A DNA stretch of 64,000 nucleotides from an uncultured delta proteobacterium (GCA_963724765.1 CAVRVY010000004.1:128001-192000), one strand, 5' to 3'; shown: positions 17,526-60,573, counted from the stretch's first letter. The notes: generated by a model from the letters alone, not told the origin. Translations and numbers: made by a program.

Positions 17526-17613
17526 ACCTGGCGCGGCGCCCCGAGCGGAGAGATTCCATCGCACATCCGAGTTACCGCCCTCTCCGAACCAAGCAGATTT
17601 TCGTTTAGACTTG

Positions 17614-44582: not shown

Positions 44583-45738
44583 TACGGGCCTGCGGCCGCG
44601 ATGGCCGCGCGGCGTCCTCGACGGCCGTGAGTATCGCTTCGCCCAGCCGCTTCACCTGGCGCTCGACGTCGCAGCATTTCATGACCCGCGCGGGTCCCGC
44701 GGAGCCCATGCGCGCGCGCAAATCTGGATCGCCGGCGAGTTTCCGGATGGCGCCCGCAACCGCGTTGGAATCTCCGGGAGCAACGATTATCGCGCATTCG
44801 TCGTCAAGGATATCGATCACGCCTGACAAGGATGTTCCGATTACCGGCAGCCGCGCCCACAGGGCCTCGATGAAGGTCAGGCCAAAACCTTCGGACCCGG
44901 AGTTCGGCTGGCAATAGATATCGGCGGCGGCAAGCAGCCGCGGAAGATCATCATAGTAGCCGATGAACCTGACTCTATCCGCGATACCCAGTCCGGCGGC
45001 CTCGGCCTTGAGGGTATCGAGATATCGAAGCTGGTAGTCAAGTTCCGCACGTCCGGCAAACCAGCAGACTAGGTTGGGCAATTCGGTGAGCTTGTTGAGC
45101 GCCTGGAGATTGATCCGATGGCCCTTGTACGGCTCCATCCGGCCGACCTGGACAATGACGGTTGCGTCGGGAGCGGTTGAGAGGCCGGCGCGGACCGCGT
45201 CGCGTTCGGCGGTGGAAAAAATGCGCTGGTCGGGGAGCTCGGCCGGAACGTAAATAATCTCGCAGCGAACTTCGGGAAAAAGCTTAGGCAGGCTTTCCGC
45301 GGCTGCCTTGCTGATCGCGATCGCGAGGCTGGGCTTGCCCGGGCTCAGCAACCGCTCGTACCAGCGCCGGCTGTCGGCGGGGTCGTAGTGGATCAGAATA
45401 GCCGGGAGGTGTGCCGCACGAACCGCCGGCGCGAGCAGCGTATAGATCCAGGGGGCGTGTAGCACCGCGCCGTCGATTTCGCGCGCGCGCAAAATGTCGC
45501 GAAGATGGCGATGGGCGCGCCAGAAGGTTCTGATTCTCGGGTCTTGGATGAGATGGACGGGCGCGCCGGTTGCGCGCAGCGCGGACGCCTGGTGGCCGTC
45601 AAAGCAGAGCGCGAATTCCAGTTCCAGACCGGGGTAGAGATCGCGATGGCGGGCGAGGGTGGTCATCACCGTCTCGACCCCGCCATAAACGTTGCCTACG
45701 CCGATGTGCAGGATCCTCTTTCGACGGCTCGACGACAT
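44575..45738 (-). CDS. Glycosyltransferase family 4
   Basis: GGVE, VGRMEPYKG, EGFGLTFIEA. Confidence 0.88.
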   Translation of the reverse strand: MSSSRRKRILHIGVGNVYGGVETVMTTLARHRDLYPGLELEFALCFDGHQASALRATGAPVHLIQDPRIRTFWRAHRHLRDILRAREIDGAVLHAPWIYTLLAPAVRAAHLPAILIHYDPADSRRWYERLLSPGKPSLAIAISKAAAESLPKLFPEVRCEIIYVPAELPDQRIFSTAERDAVRAGLSTAPDATVIVQVGRMEPYKGHRINLQALNKLTELPNLVCWFAGRAELDYQLRYLDTLKAEAAGLGIADRVRFIGYYDDLPRLLAAADIYCQPNSGSEGFGLTFIEALWARLPVIGTSLSGVIDILDDECAIIVAPGDSNAVAGAIRKLAGDPDLRARMGSAGPARVMKCCDVERQVKRLGEAILTAVEDAARPSRPQARTI

Positions 45739-45873
45739 CGTGGCAGAGAAATCATGACAGGAAGCCGGTAGGAGTTCATCTGCTCAAGCGCTCGTCGGAG
45801 CGCGCAGGCTCGCCGCCGCGTTCAGAATTTCGCGTTGAGTTTCTTTGACGGCGATTTAGATGCGCAGCGAAAT

Positions 45874-46350
45874 TCAGGCTTTGGACCAGTGCTCCCAGTC
45901 CTTGGCAAAGTCCTGCACTGTTATCGCTCGGCGCAGGCTGAAATCGGGATTCAGCAAGTCGTAGATGTGATCGTCCTTGCCACGCATGCTGAAATACACC
46001 ACCACTCCGTCGTCACCCCCACCTTCTATGTGAATTTCGTTTTCGGCTCCGCTCGAGAAAGCACCCGCCCGCTTTATCTTCTCGACGACGCCATTGGCAG
46101 TTTGTTCGAAGATGTGGAGCGAGCCCTCGAGCACCAGAGTTGTGGTCGCCGCTACGTGGCGATGGAAAAGACAGCGGCTCCCGGGCTCGAATTTGACCAG
46201 CATGTCAGCGGTGTGAGCCGCGACGTTGACGTCCAGAATCCGGTAGTAACAGCCTTCGGTAAGGAAGTCCTTCCACTCGATATTCGTGGTATCAAAGCGG
46301 AAGTTTGCCGGGCTGGTCTGGTGTCGCTCAACAGGCGTGGAGTCGTTCAT
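45874..46350 (-). CDS. Cupin-fold (ChrR-like) protein
   Basis: LVKFEPGSRCLFHRH...LVLEG...HIEGGG. Confidence 0.7.
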   Translation of the reverse strand: MNDSTPVERHQTSPANFRFDTTNIEWKDFLTEGCYYRILDVNVAAHTADMLVKFEPGSRCLFHRHVAATTTLVLEGSLHIFEQTANGVVEKIKRAGAFSSGAENEIHIEGGGDDGVVVYFSMRGKDDHIYDLLNPDFSLRRAITVQDFAKDWEHWSKA

Positions 46351-46545
46351 TCTGCTTCCCTCGTAATGGATTATCCCGGAGACATCAGGGAAGTCCCACG
46401 GTTCCCGGCTATGTTTATAGCACAGCAGCCGGTGAGCCCGAAGTGTTTCGCGTTGACCCGATATCTCGTGGGCCATTTTCGAAATTAGTTGCGCATGAGT
46501 CTGCGACATGAGCCTGGTTGACTGTCGGCGCGACTCGGGGCCCGT

Positions 46546-47817
46546 TCACTGCGTGTACAAATCCGTGGTGTTGAGTGACCCGAAGATGCCTCCACCGCCG
46601 GCAATGAGGACCTTGCCGTTGGGTAGCAGCGTGGCAGTTGCATCAAGGCGCTGATAATTCATGCTGGGAGTTAAAGAAGCCGGAAAAAAGCTGTTGGTTG
46701 CGGGATCGTAGATATCAACGATGCTCGTATCAATGCTCCCAGTTATTCCGCCTGCGATCAGCACATTGGCATTGTTCAGCAACGTGGCTGTGGCTTCCAC
46801 ACGAGCCTTGTTCATCAGCGGAGTCGAAGACGCCGGGGCGAAGGTATTGCTCGCTGGGTCATACAAATCCACGTCGTTAAGTATCGGGTTCAAGGTGCCC
46901 CCACTCAGACCCAGGCCGCCAGCGATGAGCACTTTGCCGTTGGCCAGCAAAGTCGCCGTGGCTTGTTCGCGCGCTTCGTTCATTAACGGGGTCGAGGTGG
47001 CGAAGCTATTGGTAGCTGGATCGTACAAGTCCACGCTATTGGTCGGGGACTCTGTGGCTAACGATTTGCCATCATCGCCGCCGGCAATCAGCACCTTGCC
47101 ATTCGGTAACAGTGTCGCTGTGGCGTCACCCCGCGCGTCGCTCATCGCAGGAAGTGACGCGGCGGCGGCGAAGCTGTTGGTCGCCGGATCGTACAACTCC
47201 ACGCTGTTTAGCTGTATCCCGGGAGGATAAGGAAGCGCCGCGAAGCCACCCCCCCTGCGATCAGCACCTTGCCGTTGGGCAACAATACGGCGGTGGCCTG
47301 AGTGCGCGCAGTGTTCATGACCGGAACTGACGCGGCTGTAGCAAAGCTGTTGGTCGCCGGGTCATACAACTCGATGCTGTTTAGCGGTCCTGGAACGCCC
47401 CCCCCCAAGGGCCTCACCGCCCGCTATCAGCACCTTGCCGTTCGGCAGCAACACGGCGGCGGCCTGATAGCGCGCCGTGTTCATCGTGGGAGTCGAAGCG
47501 GGCGGAGCAAAACTGTTGCTCGCGGAACCATACAACTCCACGCTGTCGAGATACGTTCCAAAAAAGGGAGAGAGCGAGGTGCGGCCAAAGCCGCCTGCGA
47601 TAAGCACGTTACCGTTGGGCAACAACGTGGCGGTGGCGCCTTGACGTTCCTGATTCATGGAGGGGGTGGTACCTAGCGCAGCAAAGCTGCCACCTGAGGC
47701 AGGCTGCGCCTGCGGCGAAGACCCTGCCGAAGGCGAGGCGGACGAACCGCCGCCACATCCGGCAAGCATCAGGATGACGCTGAAGATGAGACCGCACCAG
47801 CTGCGTCCACTGGTCAT
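46546..47817 (-). pseudogene. Kelch-repeat beta-propeller lipoprotein, frameshifted at two poly-G tracts
   Basis: Lipobox LAGC; repeated R..ATATLLPNGKVLIAGG...VELYDPATNSF. Frame breaks fall at the C9 (47398-47406) and C7 (47249-47255) runs. Confidence 0.8.
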
Positions 47818-47953
47818 GTTGTTCCTCTCTGAGATCTTCAAACCTTCGGGATTCGACCGCAGATGCTCGGGCGTCCGGACGCGCTGCGAGGCGGCGAGCG
47901 CGGCGCCAGCGCGCCATGCCGACAATGAAAGCAGCGCGCAGGTCGAATCGGCT

Positions 47954-47981
47954 AGCTGACATAATATTTCAAGCGCCTGTT
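47954..47981 (-). other. dif-like site A (degenerate XerC arm)
   Basis: Minus strand AACAGGCGCTT-GAAATA-TTATGTCAGCT; spacer identical to dif and XerD arm 10/11. Confidence 0.65.
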
Positions 47982-48057
47982 ACGAACTCTGCGTTCGCGC
48001 CACGCTTGCAATAGGAGTAAAGCCGGATGTGCGTGCTAGACGCGAAGGAGCCAAGCA

Positions 48058-48426
48058 ATGGCAGTTAAAGCGATAGGGGAATTTTCGTTCAAGGCCATCA
48101 CCAGCACCTACAGTCCCGGGCCGGCGGGAAGCGTTCTCGACCAAGTGAATTGGGAAGGGACGGCGGCGGGGTTCGGAACAGTCTTCGGCACGGCTACCTA
48201 CGTCGGTGGTTCCAAGAACGGGACCTTCAGTGCGTGTTGGGTCGCTTACCTGGACAACGGCGAGCAACTTTCGGGTATCGGTTCTGGCACCTATGAGAGC
48301 AGCGGCAAACACCACTGGCGCACGCAGCACGTAATTCACATATCCGACGGCACTAGTATCGTCAACGAAGGTGAGATCGACCTGGCCACTCGGTCGTGGA
48401 CGGGTAAAAATTTCGAGAATAGCTGA
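48058..48426 (+). CDS. Beta-rich hypothetical protein between dif-like sites A and B
   Basis: AAGGAG RBS, intact 122-aa ORF. Confidence 0.7.
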   Translation: MAVKAIGEFSFKAITSTYSPGPAGSVLDQVNWEGTAAGFGTVFGTATYVGGSKNGTFSACWVAYLDNGEQLSGIGSGTYESSGKHHWRTQHVIHISDGTSIVNEGEIDLATRSWTGKNFENS

Positions 48427-48557
48427 ACGCGGGAGTCTCGCCTCCGCCGGCCCGGCGCGCATAAAGGAGGACTTTCGTCCAAAAATTCCTCTGCTGAAGG
48501 GTTGGTAAGCGCGGCGAGCCGGAATCGGTCGCCGCGCTTTTCATTCGCGGATAAGCA

Positions 48558-48615
48558 AGCAGACATAATATTTCTCACGCAACTGGACCGAAGCGCTGGC
48601 GACGTTACGTCAACT
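48558..48615. other. Paired inverted dif-like sites B/B'
   Basis: AGCAGACATAA-TATTTC-TCACGCAACTG-GA-CCGAAGCGCTG-GCGACG-TTACGTCAACT. Confidence 0.65.
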
Positions 48616-49447
48616 ACGTTGGCGATTTTGTTGCAATCGACAGTCATTTCAAATAGGCTTGTCGAATGGCTCAGAATCTGGTCAGAGCGGCCAAGGCGAT
48701 AGCGCGAGCGACGGCGAGCCGAGTAGTAGTCCCGCTACTCGTCCACGGCGAGGTGCGCTGTGAGCCTCGCGAACCCGGATCTAGGAGAACTTGAAGTGAG
48801 GCCCTTTAACCTCCAGTACAAAGGCCCGCTTCATTCAATGCAATCGGATAAAGCTGATCGAAAAAAAGAAGTCCATGATATTCGGCGAGCGTTTCACGAC
48901 CAATTAAAGCGACCGTGGAAATCGACCGAATTGCTCCGCTTTAAGTCGCAACACGATTATCACGGGTTCCCTTATCGCGGACAGCGTTATCAATCCGGAG
49001 ATGGACGGTGGCTACCTCTTGATCTAGATTGGGCTGTTACAAAACGAACAAAAGCCGGGCGAGACATAAATTTCATTCCTTTAGTAATACGCGCTACAGG
49101 GATGGCCCTTACTTGTGAACTTGAAATGCGGATTGCCTGGCGCGAAAAGACTCAAGGTGGGATCGTTCGAGCGACCGCAGAAGGCTTCGATTTAGACAAT
49201 CGGCTTAAACACATTCTCGATGCATTGGCGATCCCACAAGACAATCAATTGCCTGACGACGTTGCGGCTGACCCGTCGCCATATTTTCTAACCTTGCTCG
49301 AAGACGACGGCTTGATAACTCGCATCGATGTAAAGGCACATCCGATTGGCTTGCCAAAGCAACCAACGGAGCTAGACGCTTATCTTGAGTGGAGTTGACC
49401 CGGTTTCGTGGACAGTGGCGGAGTGGGGAAAGTGAAGGAGAGCCACG

Positions 49448-49762
49448 ATGCCCAAGAGTCATGCACGGTATGCGCTGGAATACCGGCGCCGAATGGTGGA
49501 GCTGGCGCGGGCAGGGCGTAGTCCCGACGATCTCGCGAAGGAGTTCGAGCCGACCGCCCAGTCGATTCGCAACTGGGTGGCGCAGGCGGAGCGCGATGCG
49601 GGCCGTCGTCTTGATGGGCTGACCAGCGACGAGCGGCAGGAGCTTACCCGGCTGCGGCGTGAGAACCGGGTGCTGCGCGAAGAGCGCGAGATACTATCAA
49701 AAGCCGCGGCCTGGTTCGCGACGGAGACCGGTTCGGTGCCGTCACGGCGTTCGAATTCGTGA
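49448..49762 (+). CDS. IS3 transposase OrfA (HTH + leucine zipper)
   Basis: RYALEYRRRMVEL...IRNWV...ELTRLRRENRVLREEREILSKAAAWF. Confidence 0.9.
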   Translation: MPKSHARYALEYRRRMVELARAGRSPDDLAKEFEPTAQSIRNWVAQAERDAGRRLDGLTSDERQELTRLRRENRVLREEREILSKAAAWFATETGSVPSRRSNS

Positions 49763-50643
49763 GCGCGAATCAGGCCATGTACCAGATTGCGACGATGTGC
49801 CGGGTGCTGGAGGTCTCCACCAGCGGATACTACGCGTGGTGCCAACGCTCGCCGTCCGCGCGCGCCCAGGCGGACGCGGAACTCACTTCACGGATGAACG
49901 CGATTCATGAGAGATCGTACGGGACCTACGGCGCACCGCGCATTCACGCCGAACTTGAGGCTGAAGGCATTCAAGTGGGGCGCAAGCGGGTGGCGCGGCT
50001 AATGCGCGCGGCAGGCTTGGCCGGCGTGAGCCGGCGCAAGTGGATAACCACCACGATGCGTGACCGCAATGCGCGTCCGGCGCCGGACCTGGTCGAGCGC
50101 AACTTCATGGCGCCAGGACCGAATCGGTTGTGGGTGGCTGACATCACCTATATCCCGACCTGGGCTGGTTTCCTGTATCTCGCGGTAGTGTTGGACGCCT
50201 TCAGCCGCCGGATCGTGGGCTGGGCGATGGCGACTCATCTGCGCACCGAGCTGGTGCTCGAAGCACTGAACATGGCGCTGGCGCAGCGGCGGCCCGCCGG
50301 GGTGATCCATCATTCCGACCAAGGCACACAGTACACGTCGATCGCCTTCGGGATACGTTGCCGGGAGGCCGGCGCGCGACCCTCGATGGGCTCGGTCGGT
50401 GATTGCTTCGACAATGCCATGTGCGAGAGCTTTTTCGCTACGCTCGAATGCGAGCTGCTCGACCGCCGCCGTTTCCACACCCAAGCCGAGGCGCGCATGG
50501 CGGTCTTCGAGTTCATCGAGGGCTGGTACAATCCCCATCGCCGCCACTCCGCCCTCGACTATCTGTCGCCAATCAACTACGAAAGGAGCCACGACCCAGA
50601 GGAGTCAACCGCAAGCCCTCCGCCGTCCACTGAACCGGGGTAA
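49759..50643 (+). CDS. IS3 transposase OrfB (DDE integrase)
   Basis: WVADITY, HHSDQGTQY, DNAMCESFF, YNPHRRHSAL. Confidence 0.93.
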   Translation: MSANQAMYQIATMCRVLEVSTSGYYAWCQRSPSARAQADAELTSRMNAIHERSYGTYGAPRIHAELEAEGIQVGRKRVARLMRAAGLAGVSRRKWITTTMRDRNARPAPDLVERNFMAPGPNRLWVADITYIPTWAGFLYLAVVLDAFSRRIVGWAMATHLRTELVLEALNMALAQRRPAGVIHHSDQGTQYTSIAFGIRCREAGARPSMGSVGDCFDNAMCESFFATLECELLDRRRFHTQAEARMAVFEFIEGWYNPHRRHSALDYLSPINYERSHDPEESTASPPPSTEPG

Positions 50644-50764
50644 CTCCAGAGATCGACATTGATGTGACGGTCCAGAGCGATGCGCTCGATGATTTTTAAG
50701 CCTTTCTGAGACTCGTTGGCGCCTGTTGAGTCGCGCTTTAGTATGCTGCGCGGATGTTCGCGCC

Positions 50765-51217
50765 CTACTCCAATAAGTCCACCATTGAAGACCCTAATTG
50801 TTGGTGGATCTGCTCCCAACGTGCCGTCGCCGCAAGGAGTTTGTCGTGGGCCTTGTCGCGCTCTTTCTCAAGGTCTGTGATTTGCGTTTTCAATTCCCGC
50901 ACCGCGCTCTCGACTGATTGAACATTTTGGACGGCCGTATGGCGCGCTTGTGCTAGGCGCGCCAGTTCTGGCTCAAGTGAGGGTCTCACATTTGAAGTAG
51001 CAGTGTCACGATATTCTCGAAACTTCTGATAATTCAGTTCTGCTTTTTCTCGCAATTCGTTGACATATGGCAACGTGCCTTTCGTATTGTTCGCCTTTGT
51101 TCTTATGAGCATGAGCTGGTCGTCATATTTTTGGACGCGCTCGCTCGCTTGGATACGTTTGGCATTTTCCACTTCCAGAGCATGTTGAAGATTTTCTCTA
51201 ATGCCCACCTCGTTCAC
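50765..51217 (-). CDS. Coiled-coil cargo protein
   Basis: 150-aa helical ORF whose GTG start overlaps the TGA of the upstream small ORF. Confidence 0.6.
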   Translation of the reverse strand: MNEVGIRENLQHALEVENAKRIQASERVQKYDDQLMLIRTKANNTKGTLPYVNELREKAELNYQKFREYRDTATSNVRPSLEPELARLAQARHTAVQNVQSVESAVRELKTQITDLEKERDKAHDKLLAATARWEQIHQQLGSSMVDLLE

Positions 51218-51381
51218 CTCTGCCCGATCCTTGTCTTTGGATCTGAATGAATTGCTTTTCCTAACAACTTGTCAAACTTTCCTAAGTCAATATGGCGGAT
51301 CTGCTCCCGCAGCTTGTCATCCTCTGCGCGCTGCTTTTCGCTGATCGGCTTGTGCTTTTGCCTACGCTTTTTTGTGGCCAC
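51214..51381 (-). CDS. Small basic protein (55 aa) downstream of IS1595-a transposase
   Basis: Hand-translated MATKKRRQKHKPISEKQRAEDDKLREQIRHIDLGKFDKLLGKAIHSDPKTRIGQR; homologous to 56699-56854. Confidence 0.7.
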   Translation of the reverse strand: MATKKRRQKHKPISEKQRAEDDKLREQIRHIDLGKFDKLLGKAIHSDPKTRIGQR

Positions 51382-51431
51382 GCTTGTACTTTAGCGCGGC
51401 CACGGAGCCTAGGCCATATGGTGCTTGCAAA

Positions 51432-52364
51432 CTATCCACTGCACGTTTCGACCATCGCAGCAAAGGCGTCTGCGCTGTGGCGATTGTTGTGGCGAAAGCT
51501 GAACTCATTTAGATACAGCGGCAGATAATCCTTGCTCACGTGGTGATAGGTGCCCACCACGCCACGCTTGAGCAATGCCCAGAACGATTCGATATTGTTT
51601 GTGTGAACCTCGCCGCGCACATATTCGCCGCGACCGTGATTCACAGCCTGATGCGGGATGCTTCTGTTCAGATAGCGATAGGCTTGATTTTCATCGGTCG
51701 CAACCAGTGAAACCTTGTCGCTCACAGTGCGATTAACGAAACCAGTCAGAGTTTGGGCGCCCATATCGCCAATGACCTTGGCGACGATGTTGCCCTTGCG
51801 CTCGATAGCGCCAATCACGCCGACTTTGCCGTAGCCGATGGCTTCGCCTAGAGGCTGTCGGCCTTTGGCCTTGCGTACCTGGGCGCTTTTCTTGCCGTAG
51901 TGGCGATTCCGATCCTTTCCACCGATGTAAGTTTCATCGACTTCGACTTGGCCAGTCAGCGAAAACGCATCGCCTTTCATCGCAGCACGCCAGCGATGGC
52001 AGATATACCAAGCTGTGCGCCAGTCTGTACCTGAATCCTCGCCAAACATAACGCGCCGAACCTGAAGCGAGCTAATGCCTTTCTTCGCGGTCAGCATCAT
52101 GTAGCCAATGCGAAACCAGATAACCAGTGAGACTTTGGTGTCTTGAAAAATCGTGGCTGTGGTGACGCTAAAGCGATAGCCCGCGCGCTTGCCGCAATCG
52201 GCGTTGCAGCAAGTCCAGCTAAAGGGTTTCTTTAACTTGTAGATTTTCTCCGCACGATTACAGCGAGGGCAGCGCACGCCGTTCGGCCAGCGCTTGGCGA
52301 CGATGTATTCTTTGCAGGCTTCATCGGTCGGAAACTGTTTCTCGAATAGCGCCAGTGTTTCCAT
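51432..52364 (-). CDS. IS1595-family (ISXO2-like) transposase a
   Basis: Zn ribbon CPRC..C..C, TIFQDTK, EVDETYIGG, ATDE, HTNNIESFW, YLNEFSFRHN. Confidence 0.93.
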   Translation of the reverse strand: METLALFEKQFPTDEACKEYIVAKRWPNGVRCPRCNRAEKIYKLKKPFSWTCCNADCGKRAGYRFSVTTATIFQDTKVSLVIWFRIGYMMLTAKKGISSLQVRRVMFGEDSGTDWRTAWYICHRWRAAMKGDAFSLTGQVEVDETYIGGKDRNRHYGKKSAQVRKAKGRQPLGEAIGYGKVGVIGAIERKGNIVAKVIGDMGAQTLTGFVNRTVSDKVSLVATDENQAYRYLNRSIPHQAVNHGRGEYVRGEVHTNNIESFWALLKRGVVGTYHHVSKDYLPLYLNEFSFRHNNRHSADAFAAMVETCSG

Positions 52365-52371
52365 GCTTCAG

Positions 52372-52400
52372 ATATTAGCGCTCTTTGCGTTGACTGTCAA
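52372..52400 (-). promoter_or_regulatory. sigma70 promoter of transposase a (probably leaderless)
   Basis: TTGACA-17 bp-TAATAT-7 nt-ATG; -35 lies inside the IR. Confidence 0.7.
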
Positions 52401-52420
52401 TACCAACAAAATAGCCACTA

Positions 52421-52448
52421 CGTAGACATAAATACTTGGAGTGCAAGT
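52421..52448 (-). other. dif-like site C
   Basis: Plus strand CGTAGACATAA-ATACTT-GGAGTGCAAGT; GTGCAA shared with site D; abuts the stop codon at 52449. Confidence 0.5.
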
Positions 52449-52955
52449 TCACCCTCTCAGGTCCGGAGTCGGCCTCGAAGCGGAAACCAGCAGGGAGATA
52501 AAGGCGATTACAGTTACACCAAGGATCCAAAGGGTCGCCAGCATGAATATGACCGCTTCCTCGCGGATGAGATAACCGGCAGCTGCCGCAAAGCTCGCGG
52601 CAGCGATTCCTAAGCCCATCACACTCGTAGTGGAAGAGCGAAGTATTTCAGTCCGATGTCGGGAGGTTTCGAGCACGAGACGACCGCCGCCGATGAGATG
52701 TATTAGACCAGACACTGCGTTGCAGATCTGCCATGCAATGTGCTCTTCGGATGCCAGATACACCAGCAGAAGCGCAGCGAAAAGGGACAGAAATAGAGCG
52801 CTCAGCGAGGAGTACATGAAATGAAACAGCGCCGAGGTTTGGCCCCTACCTAGACGGTGAGATCGCTCACCAAAAACAAAGACCACGCCGATGAATCCGG
52901 TCAGAGTCGCGGCCACTTGCGCGTAGGCGAGGAGAATAACCGCGTAACTACTCAT
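52449..52955 (-). CDS. Multi-pass membrane hypothetical protein between dif-like sites C and D
   Basis: About 5 hydrophobic segments; AQVAATLTGFIGVVFVF. Confidence 0.7.
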   Translation of the reverse strand: MSSYAVILLAYAQVAATLTGFIGVVFVFGERSHRLGRGQTSALFHFMYSSLSALFLSLFAALLLVYLASEEHIAWQICNAVSGLIHLIGGGRLVLETSRHRTEILRSSTTSVMGLGIAAASFAAAAGYLIREEAVIFMLATLWILGVTVIAFISLLVSASRPTPDLRG

Positions 52956-53000
52956 GTTGGGGTGCTAGGCTCTCTCGAAATCACGATAATTTTCGAGTCT

Positions 53001-53058
53001 GGTGAACATAATATTTCTCGTGCAACTGCAAAGAAGCGGTCGCAAGATTATGTCAACT
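53001..53058. other. Paired inverted dif-like sites D/D'
   Basis: GGTGAACATAA-TATTTC-TCGTGCAACTG-CA-AAGAAGCGGTC-GCAAGA-TTATGTCAACT; same 58-bp layout as B/B'. Confidence 0.7.
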
Positions 53059-53084
53059 TGAATCAAGTGGCGATTATCCGGCGC

Positions 53085-53113
53085 TTGACACCGACCCAAT
53101 AAAGCGCTATTCT
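53085..53113 (+). promoter_or_regulatory. sigma70 promoter of transposase b (probably leaderless)
   Basis: TTGACA-17 bp-TATTCT-7 nt-ATG. Confidence 0.7.
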
Positions 53114-53120
53114 TTTCATC

Positions 53121-54101
53121 ATGAATACGAAGAGAAAGCCCGTTGTTCGGCAGATGCAATTGCGCGAGCTTCTGGCCCGTTTCTCGACTGAGGATGCTTG
53201 CAAAGAACACCTTGACCGAAGGCGCTGGCCGGATGGTGTGGTCAAGTGCCCGCGTTGCGGCGGCAAAGCATACCGGCTCAAGGCGCGCCCCTTCCACTAC
53301 CTGTGCAAGAGCGGCAAGCAATCGACCGATAAAGAGACCGGCGATGTCGTTACCTGCCACAAACAAAACGGCTATCGCTTCTCCGTCATCACGCGAACTG
53401 TGTTCGAGAATACGAACTACCCTCTTCGAGAATGGTTCCGGGTAATCTTCTTCATGCTGCACTCGAAGAAAGGAATGTCTGCCCATCAGATACACCGCAT
53501 GATCGGAACCGGCTCGTATGAAACCGCTTGGTATATGTGCATACGAATTCGCGCCGCAATGCGCGGCGATATGCTTTCGCTGAGCGGCATTGTAGAAGCG
53601 GACGAGACTTACATCGGCGGGAAGGATCGCAATCGACACTGGAACAAAAAGAGCCGTCAGCAACGTGAATTGGCTGGGCCACAACCGCTTGGCGAGGCCG
53701 TTGGATACGGGAAAAGCGGAGTCATCGGCGCAATCGCTCGCAAGGGTAACGTCGTCTGCCGCGTGATCGGCGATCAGGATGCTCGCACGCTTGCGGGTTT
53801 CGTTCGCAACGTCGTTGACGACAAGGTAACCCTCGTCGCGACGGACGAGAACCAAGCCTACAATTATTTGGACCGCGACATTCGCCATGAGGCGGTCAAG
53901 CACAGCGCTGGCGAATACGTGCGCGGCGAGGTCCATACGAACAACATCGAGAGTTTCTGGAGCCTTCTGAAGCGTGGCGTTGTGGGCACCTATCACAACG
54001 TGAGCAAGAAATATCTGCCGCTGTATCTGAATGAATTTTCCTTCCGATTCAACAATCGCGAGAACCCTGATATCTTCGACGCCATCCTTCGAGGATGCTG
54101 A
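53121..54101 (+). CDS. IS1595-family transposase b
   Basis: CPRC, EADETYIGG, ATDE, HTNNIESFW, YLNEFSFRFN. Confidence 0.93.
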   Translation: MNTKRKPVVRQMQLRELLARFSTEDACKEHLDRRRWPDGVVKCPRCGGKAYRLKARPFHYLCKSGKQSTDKETGDVVTCHKQNGYRFSVITRTVFENTNYPLREWFRVIFFMLHSKKGMSAHQIHRMIGTGSYETAWYMCIRIRAAMRGDMLSLSGIVEADETYIGGKDRNRHWNKKSRQQRELAGPQPLGEAVGYGKSGVIGAIARKGNVVCRVIGDQDARTLAGFVRNVVDDKVTLVATDENQAYNYLDRDIRHEAVKHSAGEYVRGEVHTNNIESFWSLLKRGVVGTYHNVSKKYLPLYLNEFSFRFNNRENPDIFDAILRGC

Positions 54102-54177
54102 GTTCGCCACGCTGGCGGCGCCCTCAGCAACCGTCAAAGCCAGCGCAATTGCGGTTACCGTTTGCTGCGAGGGTGGG

Positions 54178-54453
54178 ATGGCACGGAAGAAAGCAAAACG
54201 ATCGGTTGGATCAGCTCGCGTTCCAATTTCCGATGAAAAATTGATCGCGCGCCTCCAAGAGAAAGCGCCGGAGCTATTGACTGCCAAGGTTTCGGAAGCG
54301 GCCTTTGATTCGGTCATAGACAATCTGCTTGCGGAATCGCCATCCGATGATCGTCCGCATTTCTATTGCCGCAAATGCGGGGAATATCACCTGAAAAGTC
54401 ATTTGCACTATCAACCTAGCGCCACTACGAAAACCACCCCAAAACAAGCTTGA
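54178..54453 (+). CDS. Small basic protein (91 aa) downstream of transposase b, with C-terminal CxxC..H..H
   Basis: MARKKAKRS...SDEKLIARL...FDSVIDNLL...YCRKCGEYHLKSH. Confidence 0.6.
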   Translation: MARKKAKRSVGSARVPISDEKLIARLQEKAPELLTAKVSEAAFDSVIDNLLAESPSDDRPHFYCRKCGEYHLKSHLHYQPSATTKTTPKQA

Positions 54454-55075
54454 GCGATCAAGAGAAGAAAGATTCCCCCGAACCCGCAGAGCGCGGAACG
54501 AAGGGGAGTCACCTGACGGGGCACTTCGAACTCGATCTCCCAAATCCCAACGAGGATACAACCGCAGGCGAAAGAATCAGAAATCCTTCAAGCGCCGCCT
54601 TTTTAACGACCTGCGAAACCCGCGCTTTTATATCGAAGGATTCGCTCTCATCGTTGTTGCCATCTATACCGGCTTCGCTGGATATCAATCGTGTCAGTTG
54701 GAACGCTCTACCATTGCGACCAAAGAAAGCGCTGATGCTGCGGTTGCGGCGACGCGTGCCTTGATCTTTCTCGAAGAGAAACCATTTTTCGGCAGTTATG
54801 GACCTGTATGCACTATGGGCTTGCAAAATGTCGGCAAGATTCCCGCTACTCAGATAATCGAAACGCACGAATTCAAGATCACCGCCAACGATAATGCCGT
54901 TCCGAGTTTTTCCCGATGTCCTGAAGGGAAGAAACTCCGCTTCCCGTATATCAGGCCTGATCATCCGAGAATCTTCGCAATCGCTCCACCGGTCGGAGCT
55001 TCCCAGACTCCGCCCACAGTCTGGATTCACGGCTGTATTCGCTATCGCGACTTCTTGAGCGCGCGTCTAGTTTAG
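54450..55075 (+). pseudogene. Membrane-anchored cargo protein, apparently frameshifted near 54600
   Basis: Overlapping ORFs 54450-54764 and 54698-55075; a TM-like IVAIYTGFAGYQ segment lies in the second frame after a T-run. Confidence 0.45.
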
Positions 55076-55240
55076 ACCCACGATCTGGTCGGTGTCGAGT
55101 ATCGGATAATCGCCCCTCAAGTGGGGACTAGGTGAATGTTGACACCCACTGAAAGTTGGCATAAAAAGAGTCGAGGACGGCTATGCAGGGAGGTTCTGCG
55201 GGCGGGGTTCCCGCCCGGTTACAAGGGCCGCGAGTGGTTT

Positions 55241-55979
55241 ATGATTCTCCACGCTTACTTTGACGAACACGGGCACGATGGATCGTCCGTATACGCCATC
55301 GCTGGTTACGTCGGGACCGATGAGCAATGGAGCACGTTCACTGAAAAGTGGAGCTCTACCCTAGAGCGTCATTATGCATTCGGCCCGTTCCACATGGTCG
55401 AGTTCGAGGCTTCAGACATAGACAAAAAGAGCCAGTTCCACGGCTGGAGCAAGGATCAAAAGGACGCGCTGGCGAAAGAGCTTTTTCCGCTCATCCCTGA
55501 CAGCGGTGTGCGCGGATTAGGCCAAGCGATACTGATGGACGCCTTTAATGGCCTTTCGGAGAATGCACAGCAACGGTTACGCGATCCTTATTGGGGTCTG
55601 CTTCCACAACTGTATCGAACGACTACTGAAGGACATTCCAGAGGACGACAAGGTTGATTTGGTTTTTGATCGCAAAGACAAATACACTGGCGAAGCGCTG
55701 GATCGCTATAGATTTCTCAAGGATGACTGGCTGCCGCCTGCACAGGCGAAAAAGCTAGTGGGTTGTGCATTCAGAGACGACGATATCATTATTCCGCTAC
55801 AAGCAGCGGACGTTCTCGTTTATGAAACCGGCAAATTATTTGAGAACGCCTTTCGTAGGCCAGATTTATCGGAGAGAAAGTCACTGCAAGTTCTCCGTGC
55901 GCGACAAAACGTACAAATCGGAGTCTGGGACAGGGATAATCTTGCCGCAGAGTTTAAAAAATACAACTCCCTACTCTAG
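55241..55979 (+). pseudogene. DUF3800-like protein, frameshift near 55595
   Basis: AYFDEHG...IAGYVG...FHMVE in one frame; LVFDR...PLQAADVLVYE in the next. Confidence 0.65.
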
Positions 55980-56179
55980 CCACTGCTGGTAAGACACGCC
56001 CAAAAAATAGCGGCGACCACCGCGACGGCGCCTAAAACCAGCGGAATCGCACAGCCGATAAGGCCGAGCGCATCGCCCACTCCCATCGGGCCGGGATGGC
56101 TTTGGCCGCAATGTGGGCAGACCTTCGCTTTCTCTGAAACAGGCGCGTGGCAGGTTTTGCAGTTGACCAGAGCGGCCAC
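55976..56179 (-). CDS. Zinc-ribbon protein with C-terminal TM helix
   Basis: CKTC...SEKAKVCPHCG, hydrophobic tail. Confidence 0.65.
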   Translation of the reverse strand: MAALVNCKTCHAPVSEKAKVCPHCGQSHPGPMGVGDALGLIGCAIPLVLGAVAVVAAIFWACLTSSG

Positions 56180-56185
56180 GAACGT

Positions 56186-56692
56186 TCAACGGCCGAAGCG
56201 GCATACATTAGAAATCAGGCGCTGAGAGATGTCCTCGCACGACGTGTAGGTTGAGCCATCATCACAATCAAATCGTAGTTCATCGTTCTCAGCGACCTTG
56301 ATAGCGAGATATCTGGCATCAACGCGCCTATAAGACGCGAGGGGACCGTACAGCCGAGATTCGACAATACTGATGTATCGCCCAGCATTGCTGAATTCTA
56401 CTTCAATTTTTACATAAGGCAGTCGAGCGGTTGCGGTTAATACAAACTTCGTATCGCTGAGCTCTAGAAATGCGCAATGGCATTCTGGGTTCGCCTTAAG
56501 TTCTCGGCGAAGCTTTTCTGAATCGATAGAGATTCGATGCTTCAACGAATCCCAAAAAAGCGGCGCCTTGGCGGCAATAATAGCGGCGTTGTGTAGGCGC
56601 AGCCTGTCTCGAATGATCGCCCGTTCGTCTTGCTCGCGTTGCTGGCTCTTTAGTGTCTCTATCCAGTCGCTCATAGTTCCATCCGCCACCAC
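56186..56692 (-). CDS. Hypothetical cargo protein
   Basis: Intact lower-GC ORF, co-directional with transposase c. Confidence 0.6.
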   Translation of the reverse strand: MVADGTMSDWIETLKSQQREQDERAIIRDRLRLHNAAIIAAKAPLFWDSLKHRISIDSEKLRRELKANPECHCAFLELSDTKFVLTATARLPYVKIEVEFSNAGRYISIVESRLYGPLASYRRVDARYLAIKVAENDELRFDCDDGSTYTSCEDISQRLISNVCRFGR

Positions 56693-56698
56693 GTCTTT

Positions 56699-56854
56699 TC
56701 ATTTAGCCCCTTCCCGAGAACGGAAAAGTGGCTTGATGGCCCGCTTGAATTTCTCAGGGTCGGCGTACGCGAGTTCCTGTCTTAGGCGCTCGTCTTCGGC
56801 GCGCGTTTTCTCTTTCAACCTGCTTGGCTGCTTCGATTTGGTCTTGCGAGGCAC
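56699..56854 (-). CDS. Small basic protein (51 aa) downstream of IS1595-c transposase
   Basis: Hand-translated MPRKTKSKQPSRLKEKTRAEDERLRQELAYADPEKFKRAIKPLFRSREGAK; homologous to 51214-51381. Confidence 0.7.
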   Translation of the reverse strand: MPRKTKSKQPSRLKEKTRAEDERLRQELAYADPEKFKRAIKPLFRSREGAK

Positions 56855-56886
56855 GCTGAAAGCATAGCGCTTTCAAATCGCGCCGG

Positions 56887-57825
56887 CTACTGAGCGCACG
56901 TCGTAATCAAGTCGGCAAACATGTTCTCGTTCTTTCGATTGTTAAAGCGATAGCTGAATTCGTTCAAATAGAAGGGCAGATACTTCTTGCTGACGTTATG
57001 GTAGTTGCCGACGATTCCGCGCTTCAGCAACGCCCAGAACGATTCGATTGAGTTTGTGTGAACGTTGCCGCGCACGTATTCGCCGCGCGCGTGGCTCACG
57101 GCCTGATGCGGCATGCCTGCGCGAACAAACTTATAAGCTGGATTCTCGTCAGTCGCGACGAGCGTAACTTTCTCGTCTGTGGCGCGGCGCACGAATGAAC
57201 CGAGAGTAGGAGCATCCATCGAGCCGATAACGCGGGCCACGACGTTGCCCTTGCGCTCGATAGCCCCGATCACGCCGACCTTCCCGAATCCAACGGCCTC
57301 GCCAAGCCGTTGCGCGCCCTTGGCCTTGCGTACCTGGGCGCTCTTTTTGTTCTTGTGACGATTGCGGTCTTTCCCGCCGATATAAGTCTCGTCAACCTCG
57401 ACTTCGCCGCTCAGTGGACGGTACATATCGCCAGCCATCGCAGCGCGCCAGCGCATGCACATGAACCAGCTTGTGTGATAGTCGTGCGTGGAATTCTCGC
57501 CAAACATCACGCGATGAATCTGAAGCGCACTCATGCCTTTCTTTGAAGTCAGCATCAGATAGCCGACCTTAAACCAAAGATCGAGCGGCTTCTTTGTATT
57601 CTCGAAGATCGTTCCGCTGATGACCGAGAACCGAAAGCCCTGACGCTTGCCGCAATCCTCGTTCTTGCAGACCCAATGAAAGGGCCGCGCCTTGAGCGCG
57701 TAGACCTTTTCCTTGCGATCGCAGCGGGGGCAGCGCACGCCGTCCGGCCAGCGCATTTGAACCAGAAAGCGACGGCATTGCTCGTCGGTTCCAAACTCTC
57801 TATCGAAGTCGCCGATGGTCTGCAT
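56887..57825 (-). CDS. IS1595-family transposase c
   Basis: CPRC..C..C, EVDETYIGG, ATDE, HTNSIESFW, YLNEFSYRFN. Confidence 0.93.
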   Translation of the reverse strand: MQTIGDFDREFGTDEQCRRFLVQMRWPDGVRCPRCDRKEKVYALKARPFHWVCKNEDCGKRQGFRFSVISGTIFENTKKPLDLWFKVGYLMLTSKKGMSALQIHRVMFGENSTHDYHTSWFMCMRWRAAMAGDMYRPLSGEVEVDETYIGGKDRNRHKNKKSAQVRKAKGAQRLGEAVGFGKVGVIGAIERKGNVVARVIGSMDAPTLGSFVRRATDEKVTLVATDENPAYKFVRAGMPHQAVSHARGEYVRGNVHTNSIESFWALLKRGIVGNYHNVSKKYLPFYLNEFSYRFNNRKNENMFADLITTCAQ

Positions 57826-57831
57826 GCTCAA

Positions 57832-57860
57832 AGAATAGCGCTAAACGAGACGAGTGTCAA
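57832..57860 (-). promoter_or_regulatory. sigma70 promoter of transposase c (probably leaderless)
   Basis: TTGACA-17 bp-TATTCT-6 nt-ATG. Confidence 0.7.
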
Positions 57861-57881
57861 CATTCACCTAGTCCCCCCTCA

Positions 57882-57909
57882 AGTTGACATAATATTTCTT
57901 ATGCGAAGC
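57882..57909 (-). other. Chromosomal dif site (XerC/XerD recombination site)
   Basis: Minus strand GCTTCGCATAA-GAAATA-TTATGTCAACT vs E. coli GGTGCGCATAA-TGTATA-TTATGTTAAAT; intergenic; gene strand bias converges here. Confidence 0.85.
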
Positions 57910-58058
57910 CGTACTAATGCAAACCAAAATAAACCGCAGTTAGGCTGGGTGTCAATGCCGCGGCCGCCGACAGACTCCTTCCGGATGCGCTCGTCCGATG
58001 TGCGTCGGTGCGACCTGCTGGCGCGCGCGCTCGCGCGTCTCTATGATTGGGAGCCGTT

Positions 58059-59117
58059 ATGACTTCAAAGCTTCAATTGCGATCGATCATCGTTGCTTTC
58101 GCCGCGCTGCTGGCGCTCACACCTTATGGCAGTGCGGCGCGGGCCGCCTCGGCGAGCGACACTCATGCCAGCTCCAGCGACGGCGCTTCCCAGAGCGTGC
58201 AGGTGCAGATCTTTCTCCAGCGTCATTTCCGCCTGCCCAGCGCCGCCGACGTCGATGTTGGTCCGCCGCAAGCTTCATCGATTCCCGGATTTTCCGTCAG
58301 GATCGTCAAGCTGCATAACGACGCCGGTCAGTCGGCCACCTTCGTCCTGTACACCGACGCCGCCGGCAAGACCGCGATTTTGAGCGACGTCGAAGTCGGC
58401 GCGGCCTCGCCCGGCCCGGCGCACGGCCTGTGGAGCCGCCCACTGCGCCCGGCCAACGAGCCGCCAGGCGCCCCGGCCAAGTCGGTATTGATCACTGACT
58501 CACCCGGCAAAGCGATCGTTGGCACCGAAATGGATTTGACCAAGGATCCATGGGGACGTGTCAACCTTGAGAAGCTGCATCTCGACGACCGCGCCACGCT
58601 TGGGCCCGACGACGCGCCGGTGACGATCCTCGAGTTCGGCGATCTCGAATGCCCCTTCTGCGCGCGCGCCTTCAGTGAGATCGAGACCGTGGTAAACACG
58701 ACCTACAAGGGCAAGGTGCGGCTCATCTTCAAGCACTTTCCCCTGAACATCCATCCGTGGGCGATGCAGGCCGCGATCGCGGCCGAGTGCGTGCGCCGCC
58801 AGAATCCCAAGGCCTTCTGGTCCTTCGTCGGCGACGTCTATCGCGACCAGGGCGCGATCAACCCGCAGAATTTGCGCCAGCACGTCAGCACTTACGTCGA
58901 GAAGCTCGGATTGGATCAGCAGGTGCTCAATGCCTGCATCATGGCGCCGGCGGCCGAAGCCCAGGTTACGCAGGACCGCGACGACGGCACCGCAATCGCG
59001 ATCAATTCCACGCCGACCTTTCTGGTCAACGGAATCGAGTTGGTAGGGTTGCCCTCGGACAAGACCTTCGATTACGTGGTCAACTCCGAAGTGAAGCAGC
59101 ATCAGGCGAGCAAATAG
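58059..59117 (+). CDS. Exported DsbA-family thioredoxin-fold protein
   Basis: GPDDAPVTILEFGDLECPFC, FKHFPL, STPTFLVNG. Confidence 0.88.
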   Translation: MTSKLQLRSIIVAFAALLALTPYGSAARAASASDTHASSSDGASQSVQVQIFLQRHFRLPSAADVDVGPPQASSIPGFSVRIVKLHNDAGQSATFVLYTDAAGKTAILSDVEVGAASPGPAHGLWSRPLRPANEPPGAPAKSVLITDSPGKAIVGTEMDLTKDPWGRVNLEKLHLDDRATLGPDDAPVTILEFGDLECPFCARAFSEIETVVNTTYKGKVRLIFKHFPLNIHPWAMQAAIAAECVRRQNPKAFWSFVGDVYRDQGAINPQNLRQHVSTYVEKLGLDQQVLNACIMAPAAEAQVTQDRDDGTAIAINSTPTFLVNGIELVGLPSDKTFDYVVNSEVKQHQASK

Positions 59118-59165
59118 CAGCTTGAGTCACAAACCCATTGCAGGCTCAGCATGCAACAAGCCGAA

Positions 59166-59197
59166 GTCCCTCGACTCGCGGGCTCGCTCAGGATGAC
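59166..59197. repeat. Right half of the palindromic element
   Basis: GTCCCTCGACTCGC...GCTCAGGATGAC, matching the 3' arm of 44045-44163. Confidence 0.65.
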
Positions 59198-59211
59198 AGG
59201 CAGGAGTAAAC

Positions 59212-59245
59212 CGGCAGAGGGTCGCTCGCGAGCGGCCCTCTGCCG
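59212..59245. terminator. GC hairpin between convergent genes
   Basis: CGGCAGAGGGTCGCTC-GC-GAGCGGCCCTCTGCCG. Confidence 0.6.
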
Positions 59246-59253
59246 AAAGCTCT

Positions 59254-59988
59254 CTAGTGTTTCGCCGGTGCGCTTGCCGGCTTGATGATCTTGACTAATG
59301 GCGGCGAAGGCACGGCCGCAGGCGCAACCCCGAGTTGGGCCAGCGTTTCCATCACGACCGTGCGCTCGGGAGCGTACGGATGCTGCGCCAGGAAATCGCG
59401 GTAGACCGCGATCGCTTCGGCGCGTTTGCCCTGCTTTTGCAGCATCCGCGCCACCCCCATCTCTGCCCTCGCCTGCTCAGGCCCTTCGATCTGTGAGGCC
59501 TGGCGATACGCGTCTTCCGCCTGCTTGTAGTCACCCAGTTCTTCGTAAGTTACCGCAAGGTCGTCGAGCGCCGCGCCGCGGAAGACCGAGGCATCGTCCT
59601 GGGACAGGTAACGCAGTAGCGTGTCGCGCGCCTTGGCGGGCTCTTTTTGCGCCAGGTAAGCGGTGGCCAGGTAAAGGTTTGCCAGCCGTCCGACCGCACG
59701 ATGCGGTTCGGCGGCGGCGAGGCTCGATAGTTCCTTCTCCGCAGTTTCGTACTTGCCACCCTGGAGCTCGCTCAGCGCCTGATCGAAGCGTGCGGAGGCG
59801 GCGCGTCCGCGCCGGACCTGGTAGTAGTAAAGGCCGAGCGCGATTGCGACGATCACGATCAGCGCGGCAGCACCGAGCAGGACCTCGGTCATGTGGAGCT
59901 CGAAGAAGAGCGCGGCGGTTTCAAAGATACTTTGAAACTCGTCGGGCTGCTTGAGCTCTTTGCGGCTTATCTTGTGGCGGGTCGCCAA
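59254..59988 (-). CDS. Membrane-anchored TPR protein (YfgM-like)
   Basis: ISRKELKQPDEF, one TM helix, TPRs. Confidence 0.78.
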   Translation of the reverse strand: MATRHKISRKELKQPDEFQSIFETAALFFELHMTEVLLGAAALIVIVAIALGLYYYQVRRGRAASARFDQALSELQGGKYETAEKELSSLAAAEPHRAVGRLANLYLATAYLAQKEPAKARDTLLRYLSQDDASVFRGAALDDLAVTYEELGDYKQAEDAYRQASQIEGPEQARAEMGVARMLQKQGKRAEAIAVYRDFLAQHPYAPERTVVMETLAQLGVAPAAVPSPPLVKIIKPASAPAKH

Positions 59989-60039
59989 TTGAGTCTGCGG
60001 ACGCGCCCGGTGCGGGGCGCGAGAGTCGTCGCAGCCAAG

Positions 60040-60573
60040 CTACATTTTGTACTTGAAGTCGTCGGGCGACATCCGCTCGAGAATCTCGGACCATTTGTCG
60101 CGCGAGACGCTGGCCAGGTTCTGATCGGCGCCGGACGGCTCGGCAGCCTGTTCATGCAGCTCGCTCGACATCTCGAGCACTTTCTTGGCCACATAGATCG
60201 GCGACTTGGTGCGCAGCGCAATCGCGATCGCGTCCGAGGGTCTCGAGTCGACCTCCATGTCGCGGCCCTCGCGGGTGCGTACCAGGATGCGCGCGAAGTA
60301 GGTGTTCTCGCGCAACTCCGTGACCTCGACCGCCTCGACCGTCGCGCCCAGGTCGCCGAGCACGTTGCGGATGAGATCGTGCGTCATCGGGCGCTGGGGC
60401 CGGATACCCTCGAGCTCGGTCGCCATCGAGGCGGCCTCCAGCGGACCGATCCAGATCGGCAAATTGAGCTTGTTGTCGGGATCCTTGAGCACCACGATAG
60501 GCATCTTGGTGGTGGGGTCGAGCGTCAACCCGCCCACTATCATCAGAATGAAATCTTCTCTGCGCGCAGCCAT
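60040..60573 (-). CDS. Bifunctional nuclease family protein (DUF151)
   Basis: LPIWIG, RPMTHDL, DSRPSDAIAIA. Confidence 0.88.
   Translation of the reverse strand: MAARREDFILMIVGGLTLDPTTKMPIVVLKDPDNKLNLPIWIGPLEAASMATELEGIRPQRPMTHDLIRNVLGDLGATVEAVEVTELRENTYFARILVRTREGRDMEVDSRPSDAIAIALRTKSPIYVAKKVLEMSSELHEQAAEPSGADQNLASVSRDKWSEILERMSPDDFKYKM

Follow-up and report, generated by a model that had tools for sequence, protein, structure and literature searches.

A gonococcal island is among the elements that exploit Xer recombination. In Vibrio cholerae, the integrative mobile elements exploiting Xer (IMEX) TLC, CTX and VGJ possess no integrase of their own and are integrated at dif by XerCD, according to two reports (bioRxiv 10.64898/2026.06.12.731946; PMC9226527). 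In Acinetobacter, dif modules and a chromosomal 'dif module island' are built on 28-bp Xer-type sites with an 11-6-11 structure (PMC12907356; PMC10132070), and plasmid pdif sites are described with a kept XerD-type arm and a degenerate XerC-type arm, the same pattern as reported below (PMC10132070). We describe here a locus located at positions 47954-57909 of a 64,000-nt stretch of DNA (GCA_963724765.1 CAVRVY010000004.1:128001-192000; hereafter the window, whose coordinates are used unless a contig is named), which belongs to the 5.4-Mb genome G000. At this locus four dif-like sites, A to D, lie beside a chromosomal dif and bound small gene cassettes. Comparison of its sequence with that of relatives, which are metagenome-assembled genomes of the family Candidatus Binataceae (phylum Binatota), suggests that it is probably a cassette array of the IMEX or dif-module kind, inserted and rearranged at dif-type sites by the Xer recombinases of the host.

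The likeness to the Vibrio elements, as these are described, consists in the sequential stacking of units on one side of dif, in hybrid sites with one degenerate arm and in rearrangements of the array that are out of step with the core genome. As for IMEX, sites A-D have the orientation of dif and are gathered within 10 kb on one side of it, an arrangement shared by seven further genus genomes, and the region 47954-57909 encodes no recombinase of its own, XerC- and XerD-like genes of the host being located elsewhere. In contrast, we found no sign of a transmissible extrachromosomal form, since no replication, phage or transfer family was recognised in the window open reading frames (ORFs) tested, including those of cassettes 1 and 2. 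The Vibrio elements are moreover described as phages or satellites that span several kb and carry genes for replication and morphogenesis, whereas the cassettes studied here contain one ORF or none, arrays also occur away from dif, and no Xer activation factor was recognised.

Acinetobacter dif modules, in the published descriptions drawn on here, likewise contain one or a few genes, form linear arrays in varied contexts and have sites targeted by insertion sequences (ISs). Their 28-bp 11-6-11 plan, in which the XerD-type arm is conserved and the XerC-type arm variable, is that of the 51-site profile established below. As opposed to those modules, whose sites are oppositely oriented, successive sites are co-oriented here and inversion is only seen within 58-bp double sites. 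The described modules are also centred on plasmids, whereas the present array adjoins the true terminus dif and is part of its rearrangement; the host belongs to the phylum Binatota, and no resistance genes were recognised among the window ORFs. Integrons, and attC clusters without an integrase, resemble the locus in having mostly single-ORF cassettes between sites, the newest being presumed nearest to the primary site. However, no intI was found among 32 ORFs tested across 44575-62195, and the sites are 28-bp dif mimics instead of folded attC sites of 55-140 bp. Cargo is also found here on either strand, and cassettes resembling cassette 1 (type-1 cassettes) have their own leader and a terminator-like hairpin, recognised by eye. 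What appears to be new is the occurrence of co-oriented, mostly single-ORF Xer cassettes at a Binatota terminus dif, together with arrays away from dif, a 42-kb inversion and apparent IS1595-family site hunters. No description of such a system in Binatota was found in the literature searched, the coverage of which excludes most subscription journals.

The chromosomal dif and the dif-like sites

An earlier note on this DNA had recognised five co-oriented sites, a core common to four of them and a chromosomal dif at 57882. All five sites are present on the + strand at the positions given in Table 1, and an exact copy of the 12-mer ACATAATATTTC is found in A, B, D and dif. In the first three, one arm of dif and the spacer are reproduced without change, and the other arm is degenerate. 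When up to two mismatches are allowed, ACATAATATTTC has five matches in the window against 0.94 expected, a number reached in 1 of 100 shuffles. Site C is diverged: only the arm core GACATAA is kept, and its spacer agrees with TATTTC at one of six positions. Its putative status as a site rests on the likeness of its variable arm to the commonest class and on an abutting IS1595 element, as at dif.

Sites B and D are both double sites, with an inverted 28-bp partner beginning 2 bp beyond each. Five instances of this 58-bp arrangement, all with identical spacing, were found in four genomes (G000, G013, G015 and G016). The stop codon of the minus-strand gene of cassette 2 abuts site C (52448/52449), and once the three IS1595-family transposons are removed the order of the locus is A, gene, double B, C, gene, double D, dif, as previously read. 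The reported absence of an integrase or replication gene was also borne out. Family searches between A and dif detected no tyrosine or serine recombinase and no replication gene, the only recombination enzymes being DDE transposases (one IS3, three IS1595), and the 32 ORFs mentioned above include no recognised tyrosine recombinase. No RNA family was detected in 47000-58500 at E<=0.1. Single-strand folding of the sites and double sites was no better than that of shuffled sequences (z -1.1 to +1.4); the double sites thus lend no support to an attP of the CTX type, folded as a single strand.

The identification of 57882-57909 as the real chromosomal dif is upheld by its unique core, by a skew switch and by its conservation once per genome. 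It is the sole CATAA-N6-TTATG site with such a core in G000. It lies (at about 185.9 kb) at the cumulative GC-skew maximum of contig C4, where the sign of the skew flips between the 160-180 and 180-200 kb bins. G000 contains a single copy of the 22-nt dif core, as do 22 of 24 other family genomes. The core is absent from 16 genomes of other families, and reversed-pattern controls gave no match. Variability ends at dif: in the genus genomes examined, G015 excepted, the opposite flank starts about 100 nt from it. In a peat metagenome run, contigs part from the window exactly at 57882.

In G015, a 2.4-kb insertion is located about 20 bp past the XerC-type arm of dif (L062, dif-oriented, 15480-17892); it ends in an inverted double site and contains a 296-aa ORF and a glycine-rich, secreted-looking ORF. 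In G018, which belongs to another genus (L058), the two flanks have changed places with respect to the direction in which dif points, suggesting that dif was inverted in place.

Table 1. Coordinates of the sites, cassettes and transposons of the locus and of the second array of G000.
Feature	Position	Strand	Description
Site A	47954-47981	+	AGCTGACATAA-TATTTC-AAGCGCCTGTT; conserved dif-type arm and variable arm of cassette 1; outermost junction in array
Cassette 1 body	47982-48557	+	Conserved leader, gene 48058-48426 (122 aa), GC-rich inverted repeat, then TTTTC
Site B	48558-48585	+	AGCAGACATAA-TATTTC-TCACGCAACTG
Double site B	48558-48615	+	Site B, 2 bp, inverted 28-bp site 48588-48615 ending TTACGTCAACT
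Transposon 1, IS1595 family	48620-52417	-	Transposase 51432-52364 (-); passenger ORFs; nested IS3 49387-50648
Site C	52421-52448	+	CGTAGACATAA-ATACTT-GGAGTGCAAGT; diverged; variable arm GGAGTGCAAGT
Cassette 2 gene	52449-52955	-	168 aa; membrane protein predicted by eye; no family match
Site D	53001-53028	+	GGTGAACATAA-TATTTC-TCGTGCAACTG
Double site D	53001-53058	+	Site D, 2 bp, inverted 28-bp site 53031-53058 ending TTATGTCAACT
Transposon 2, IS1595 family	53069-55114	+	Transposase 53121-54101; passenger ORFs
Transposon 3, IS1595 family	55123-57876	-	Transposase 56887-57831 (-); 23-bp perfect terminal repeats
Chromosomal dif	57882-57909	+	AGTTGACATAA-TATTTC-TTATGCGAAGC
Array 2	G000 C4:227648-230246 (L009 5648-8246)	-	7 sites, 6 cassettes; no full dif

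The two arms could be named by comparison with the E. coli dif site, which is printed from the XerC arm to the XerD arm in PMC2731167. The shared arm AGTTGACATAA, read on the other strand, agrees with the E. coli XerD arm at 9 of 11 positions and the dif-only arm with the XerC arm at 9 of 11, against 7 and 7 for the swapped assignment. On this similarity to proteobacterial dif, the arm shared by all sites is probably XerD-type and the dif-only arm XerC-type, which reverses the naming implied earlier; the cassettes would therefore retain an XerD-type arm with the spacer, their XerC-type arm being degenerate. G000 encodes one XerD-like protein (316 bits against TIGR02225) and one XerC-like protein (306 bits against TIGR02224), both just below the equivalog cut-off and both outside the array, the former being encoded on contig C2 at about 373 kb and the latter on contig C3 at about 1,107 kb.

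Arrays and rearrangements across the genus

With at most one mismatch, the 12-mer was found at 14 places in G000. Ten of these belong to arrays, four to the window array and six to a second one (array 2); the others are single sites on contigs C2 and C3 and two probable chance matches. Array 2 is located on the opposite strand, 42-44 kb past dif and outside the window, and a site with two mismatches brings its number of sites to seven. Three of its cassettes carry paralogues of gene 1 (the gene of cassette 1); the remaining three are short and measure 236-362 bp. No recombinase-like match of G000 falls near either array. Arrays of 0.1-1 kb cassettes away from dif were also found in G004 (contigs C33 and C5, and at +44 kb from dif) and in G011 (contig C109). 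Such arrays are therefore not confined to the vicinity of dif.

Of 16 genus genomes, 15 contain the exact 12-mer, at 51 places in all; it is missing from nine genomes of other families, and controls gave no match. In the 51 non-dif sites, the outer arm reads AGTTG at the positions left unconstrained by the search (G2 in 41/51, G5 in 36/51), and the variable arm has the consensus RAGTGCCAnGT (G20 in 44/51), with TGC-AAG in common with the dif arm. The shared arm and spacer recur across relatives, in agreement with the earlier view that the extra sites derive from dif and bound single-gene cassettes. As a separate observation, the junction sites of G014 at L066 10134, 10597 and 13251 have the spacer TGTTTC, although the dif site of this genome has TATTTC. 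The former spacer also belongs to dif in G010, G013 and G018, and the G014 junctions thus hint at transfer between hosts or at drift of dif.

The sites are polarized relative to dif. At 21 dif loci we counted 21 extra co-oriented sites in eight genomes (G000 and seven others), all on the side of the conserved arm, the stretch searched being 15.5 kb long on the array side but only 4 kb in the opposite direction. This asymmetry is removed when whole-contig positions of exact sites are used. On contigs carrying dif, 12 of 12 co-oriented exact sites are located on the conserved-arm side, within 11 kb, and 7 of 7 inverted exact sites are located on the opposite side, at 7-44 kb.

Comparison of the dif region between relatives, which the earlier note had proposed, revealed gain, loss and re-neighbouring of cassettes with breakpoints at the sites. 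One pair of close relatives is informative. Over 11.4 kb of flank, G005 and G015 share 94% identity, and their outer flanks are the same, but G005 contains an extra 3.9 kb of cassettes and IS between two copies of the 17-nt sequence AGTTGACATAATATTTC, and the dif site of G015 corresponds to the left part of the G005 junction site joined to the right part of the G005 dif. In seven type-1 cassettes, out of 24 small cassettes, the 5' arm AAGnGCC... belonging to the cassette is constant, with five types of arm preceding it and seven arms following. Another cassette, which specifies a 136-aa protein, has the same two arms in G004, where it belongs to an array remote from dif, and in G014, where it is part of the dif array. 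The presence of the same module in different contexts, a feature of dif modules, is thus observed for both of these cassette families.

Rearrangement extends to the terminus region itself. A 42-kb segment, M, located beside the XerC-type arm, remains attached to dif in the genomes examined, and two different sequences are found on the other side of dif. G000, G001 and G004, among others, have the L flank there. In its place, G005, G015 and G016 have DNA that is found beyond array 2 in G000, and the L flank of G005 and G016 is located 42-70 kb past dif, inverted. Either form of the terminus would be converted into the other by one crossover between dif and a dif-like site in inverted orientation, and homologous recombination between inverted paralogous cassettes might have the same effect. 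Such a crossover would explain both the inverted orientation of array 2 and the inverted sites observed about 42-44 kb from dif in G000, G001 and G004, to which a decayed one beside gene 1 of G016, at 44 kb, may be added. The inverted terminus segment, in G000 coordinates, corresponds to about 185.9-230.5 kb of contig C4 and ends at dif and at array 2.

Cassettes measure 0.1-1 kb (some 2-3 kb) and contain one ORF or none, with cargo on either strand; in the relatives, cargo ORFs were read by eye. Aligned type-1 units begin with a variable arm and a conserved leader; the gene comes next, followed by a GC-rich hairpin and the conserved arm. The hairpin of cassette 1 was not flagged by a terminator scan, apparently because its loop exceeds the 8-nt limit of the scan. 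Gene 1 has five copies in G000: that of the window, three in array 2 (61-71% identity) and one on contig C3 (97%). This last copy (C3:832431-832910; L010 4431-4910) has the 3' site of the cassette and lacks the 5' site, and the DNA downstream of it is homologous to sequence beside gene 1 in G016. The protein is predicted to fold as an 8-strand beta-barrel (predicted local distance difference test score, pLDDT, 92.8) resembling proteins of unknown function and DUF3237 structures (template-modelling score 0.75-0.79, Foldseek E about 0.02). The cassette genes and the passenger ORFs of the transposons have no Pfam, NCBIfam or PADLOC match except weak coiled-coil noise, and a search of a protein atlas with the cargo returned unnamed clusters only.

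IS1595-family transposons beside the sites

In Acinetobacter, IS1202-family elements of the ISAjo2 type have been called dif site hunters; they are described as inserting 5 bp from one arm, on the XerC side, and leaving the site intact (PMC10132070). Three IS1595-family transposons occupy a comparable position in the window array. Transposon 3 is flanked by a perfect 8-bp duplication, CCTCAAGT, the final 3 nt of which are the initial 3 nt of dif; only these 3 nt of dif are included, so dif is left intact. Duplications of 8 bp are typical for the IS1595 family. Transposon 2 ends at the same point as transposon 3, and transposon 1, inserted beside the arm of site C with flanks that share CTACGT, abuts that site likewise. 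For transposons 1 and 2, 6 of 8 nt are shared. All three transposases have the DDE_Tnp_IS1595 domain and N-terminal zinc ribbon expected of the family (matches to PF12762 and PF12760), and score above the cut-off for NF033547.

The same arrangement recurs in relatives. In 11 of 20 other genomes, an IS1595-type terminal repeat was detected at this same 5-nt distance from the arm of dif, using a criterion of at least 15 identities out of 25, 15 being the 99.9th percentile of the background. Two further genomes have an IS1595 end shifted by 1-2 nt (by eye). In six genomes, a transposase start codon is found 51-59 nt from the dif core ACATAA, the transposases being 64-80% identical to the G000 copies. 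In G000 itself, 3 of 16 IS1595 copies are located at such sites and 13 are not. Two copies on contig C2 (at about 279,445 and 282,778) adjoin a dif-like spacer and XerC-type arm with 3-4 extra bases, and a site resembling that of type-1 cassettes, without a gene, is located at C2:291,729 (L011 4729), 9-12 kb from these two copies.

On this positional evidence, the IS1595 transposons appear to be dif site hunters that home 5 nt outside the conserved arm. The earlier reading of the locus had taken them out; they appear to be site-targeted and to be part of its biology. With the IS1202 hunters, as these are described, they share the fixed 5-bp distance and the intact site. In contrast to them, they encode IS1595 transposases (NF033547, PF12762), their clearest duplication is 8 bp and not 5 bp, they are found on the side of the arm that is XerD-type by similarity, either end of the element may face the site, and they carry passenger ORFs. 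We found no report of IS1595 targeting of dif in the literature searched, with the coverage stated above. The IS3 element nested in transposon 1 measures 1262 bp, and its joint has an overlap of 3 nt. The form without IS3 is represented among the contigs of two metagenome runs that belong to separate studies, showing that this insertion is polymorphic in nature.

A probable mechanism and its alternatives

In the mechanism that we propose, a cassette has a degenerate arm at one end and a good conserved dif arm (consensus AGTTGACATAA, XerD-like) at the other. Circularisation would join these ends through TATTTC and produce a 28-bp mimic of dif. Exchange between this mimic and dif, by the XerC/XerD-like recombinases of the host, would insert the cassette next to dif, on the side of the conserved arm, leaving a hybrid site distal to the cassette and rebuilding a full dif at the invariant flank. 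Because a full dif would be rebuilt at each round, cassettes would stack outward, with the newest nearest to dif. Exchange between directly repeated sites would delete cassettes, a site in inverted orientation recombining with dif would turn the terminus segment round, and IS1595-family transposons would afterwards insert 5 nt outside the conserved arms. The weak arm, chiefly its altered inner three bases, would presumably limit FtsK-driven excision. We infer the catalysis by Xer proteins, the circular intermediate and the order of strand exchange; integration and excision through XerC/XerD would agree with the site-ended indel and with the inversion.

Several observations weigh against this mechanism. 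The variable arm has a consensus of its own and is not the product of random decay, so that a non-canonical recombinase partner is possible, and the arrays away from dif require integration at secondary sites or rearrangement. Repeated cassettes, or the 17-nt identity, could also have been the substrates of homologous recombination that produced the inversion and the indel, and the relatives are metagenome assemblies, error-prone at repeats. No excised circle or site-to-site deletion product was found in the assembled contigs of four metagenome runs; assembled contigs drop rare forms, and the missing circles are no evidence against excision. A lone contig without cassette 2 (run X2, depth 2.9) breaks outside the spacers and may be another IS insertion. 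The remaining contig joints are located within IS copies or rest on sides of less than 30 letters. Cassette 1 is about as diverged between species (86-88% nucleotide identity) as its flanks (79-90%), which fits long vertical inheritance and not recent transfer. The sole near-identical segment found between species (G013/G014, 1349 bp, 99.6%) does not end at sites. This segment (L072 6148-7496 and L066 13335-14683, in dif-oriented copies, with flanks 83-86% identical) is located in the variable region by dif, encodes a 245-260-aa protein and looks like a recent transfer by another route.

The distribution of the cassette genes is also partly unfavourable. It had been suggested that they might occur elsewhere with dif-like flanks, and that stable synteny of these genes in relatives, without such flanks, would speak against capture. 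For gene 1 the picture is mixed. A site is present on either side at about 7 of 47 public homologue loci, most copies are ordinary chromosomal genes, and about 40 of the 47 loci have no recognisable site, so that the second suggestion is half borne out. A homologue of gene 2, the gene of cassette 2, was found in 1 of 60 other family genomes (54% identity), with no such sites nearby.

That the array is a relic of duplications next to dif and of homologous recombination, with sites that are scars no longer recombining and no gene capture, is an unlikely explanation, which some observations favour. The tandem gene-1 paralogues differ by 30-40% in protein and are therefore old, decayed sites are found beside gene 1 in many relatives, and both the flank-like divergence of the cassettes and the missing circles agree with it. 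It is opposed by a 12-nt core that is exact at 51 places, spread over 15 of the 16 genus genomes, despite the diverged cassettes around it, by unrelated cargo genes sharing the same site architecture, by cassette families that retain their arms beside changing neighbours and by the site-bounded 3.9-kb block that distinguishes close relatives. The distinct consensus of the variable arm and the arrays at loci without a full dif could instead point to a dedicated recombinase which, alone or with one Xer protein, would recognise the RAGTGCC-type arm, dif likeness then reflecting descent or a shared half-site. Each genome encodes many tyrosine recombinases, one of them 3.5 kb from the C5 array of G004. 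We rejected this gene as the driver of the arrays, as it has no homologue in G000 at E<=1e-5. No recombinase was found in or beside the window array, none of the recombinase-like matches of G000 is near array 2, and the polarity relative to dif and the rearrangements that end at dif tie the sites to the dif machinery, leaving this explanation improbable.

There is still less to be said for the idea that the motif belongs to the IS1595 transposons and was spread by them, as a copy of an end or of a target. Site A has no adjacent IS, array 2 has neither an IS1595 end (by eye) nor an IS1595 transposase match, double sites occur without IS in G013 and G016, the 8-bp duplication of transposon 3 includes only 3 nt of the arm and 13 of the 16 G000 copies are elsewhere. 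Against these facts, the fixed distance at which transposon ends abut the arms and the two C2 copies beside dif-like half sites make such an origin very improbable rather than absurd. We give hardly any credence to the view that the motif arose by chance or has a regulatory role, such as that of a promoter element shared within a paralogous gene family. TTGACA is indeed found inside the dif arm, and a conserved leader follows the site in type-1 cassettes, but most sites have GCTGACA, GCAGACA or GTGAACA in place of TTGACA, unrelated genes on either strand are flanked by sites, the 12-mer is missing from nine other-family genomes and the one promoter-like match in 47900-48650 is away from any site. 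The search for a phage vehicle was unproductive. A scan of viral contigs for TTGACATAATATTTC returned at least 120 loci; among the matches listed, all but one are below 52% G+C, and that exception has an unrelated second arm.

Insertion and rearrangement of cassettes by the host Xer proteins is thus the explanation that we retain as probable. Of the integron-like capture array run by host XerCD that was initially proposed, the identity of dif, the derivation of the cassette sites from dif, the lack of an integrase and the shuffling between relatives all stand; the implied naming of the Xer arms probably does not. A wider interpretation, which we only put forward tentatively, is that Binataceae possess an integrase-less integron-like system, in which single-gene units bounded by dif mimics may be captured at dif and exchanged among arrays, dif itself may switch between two inverted arrays when Xer flips the terminus over 42 kb, and a lineage of IS1595 elements may have evolved to home to the sites.

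The short substrates (A, B, D and dif) and the two candidate enzymes make this system open to direct biochemistry. The IS1595 elements would represent a second, independent case of dif-homing insertion sequences, in another IS family, which points to a general means of reaching a safe and conserved landing site. Exploitation of Xer is known from Vibrio phages and Acinetobacter plasmid modules. The present locus suggests that housekeeping dimer resolution can double as a general, integrase-free system of cassette exchange in an uncultured soil phylum; if this is true, single-ORF cassettes at the terminus dif would have consequences for the structure of the terminus itself, through a 42-kb flip-flop.

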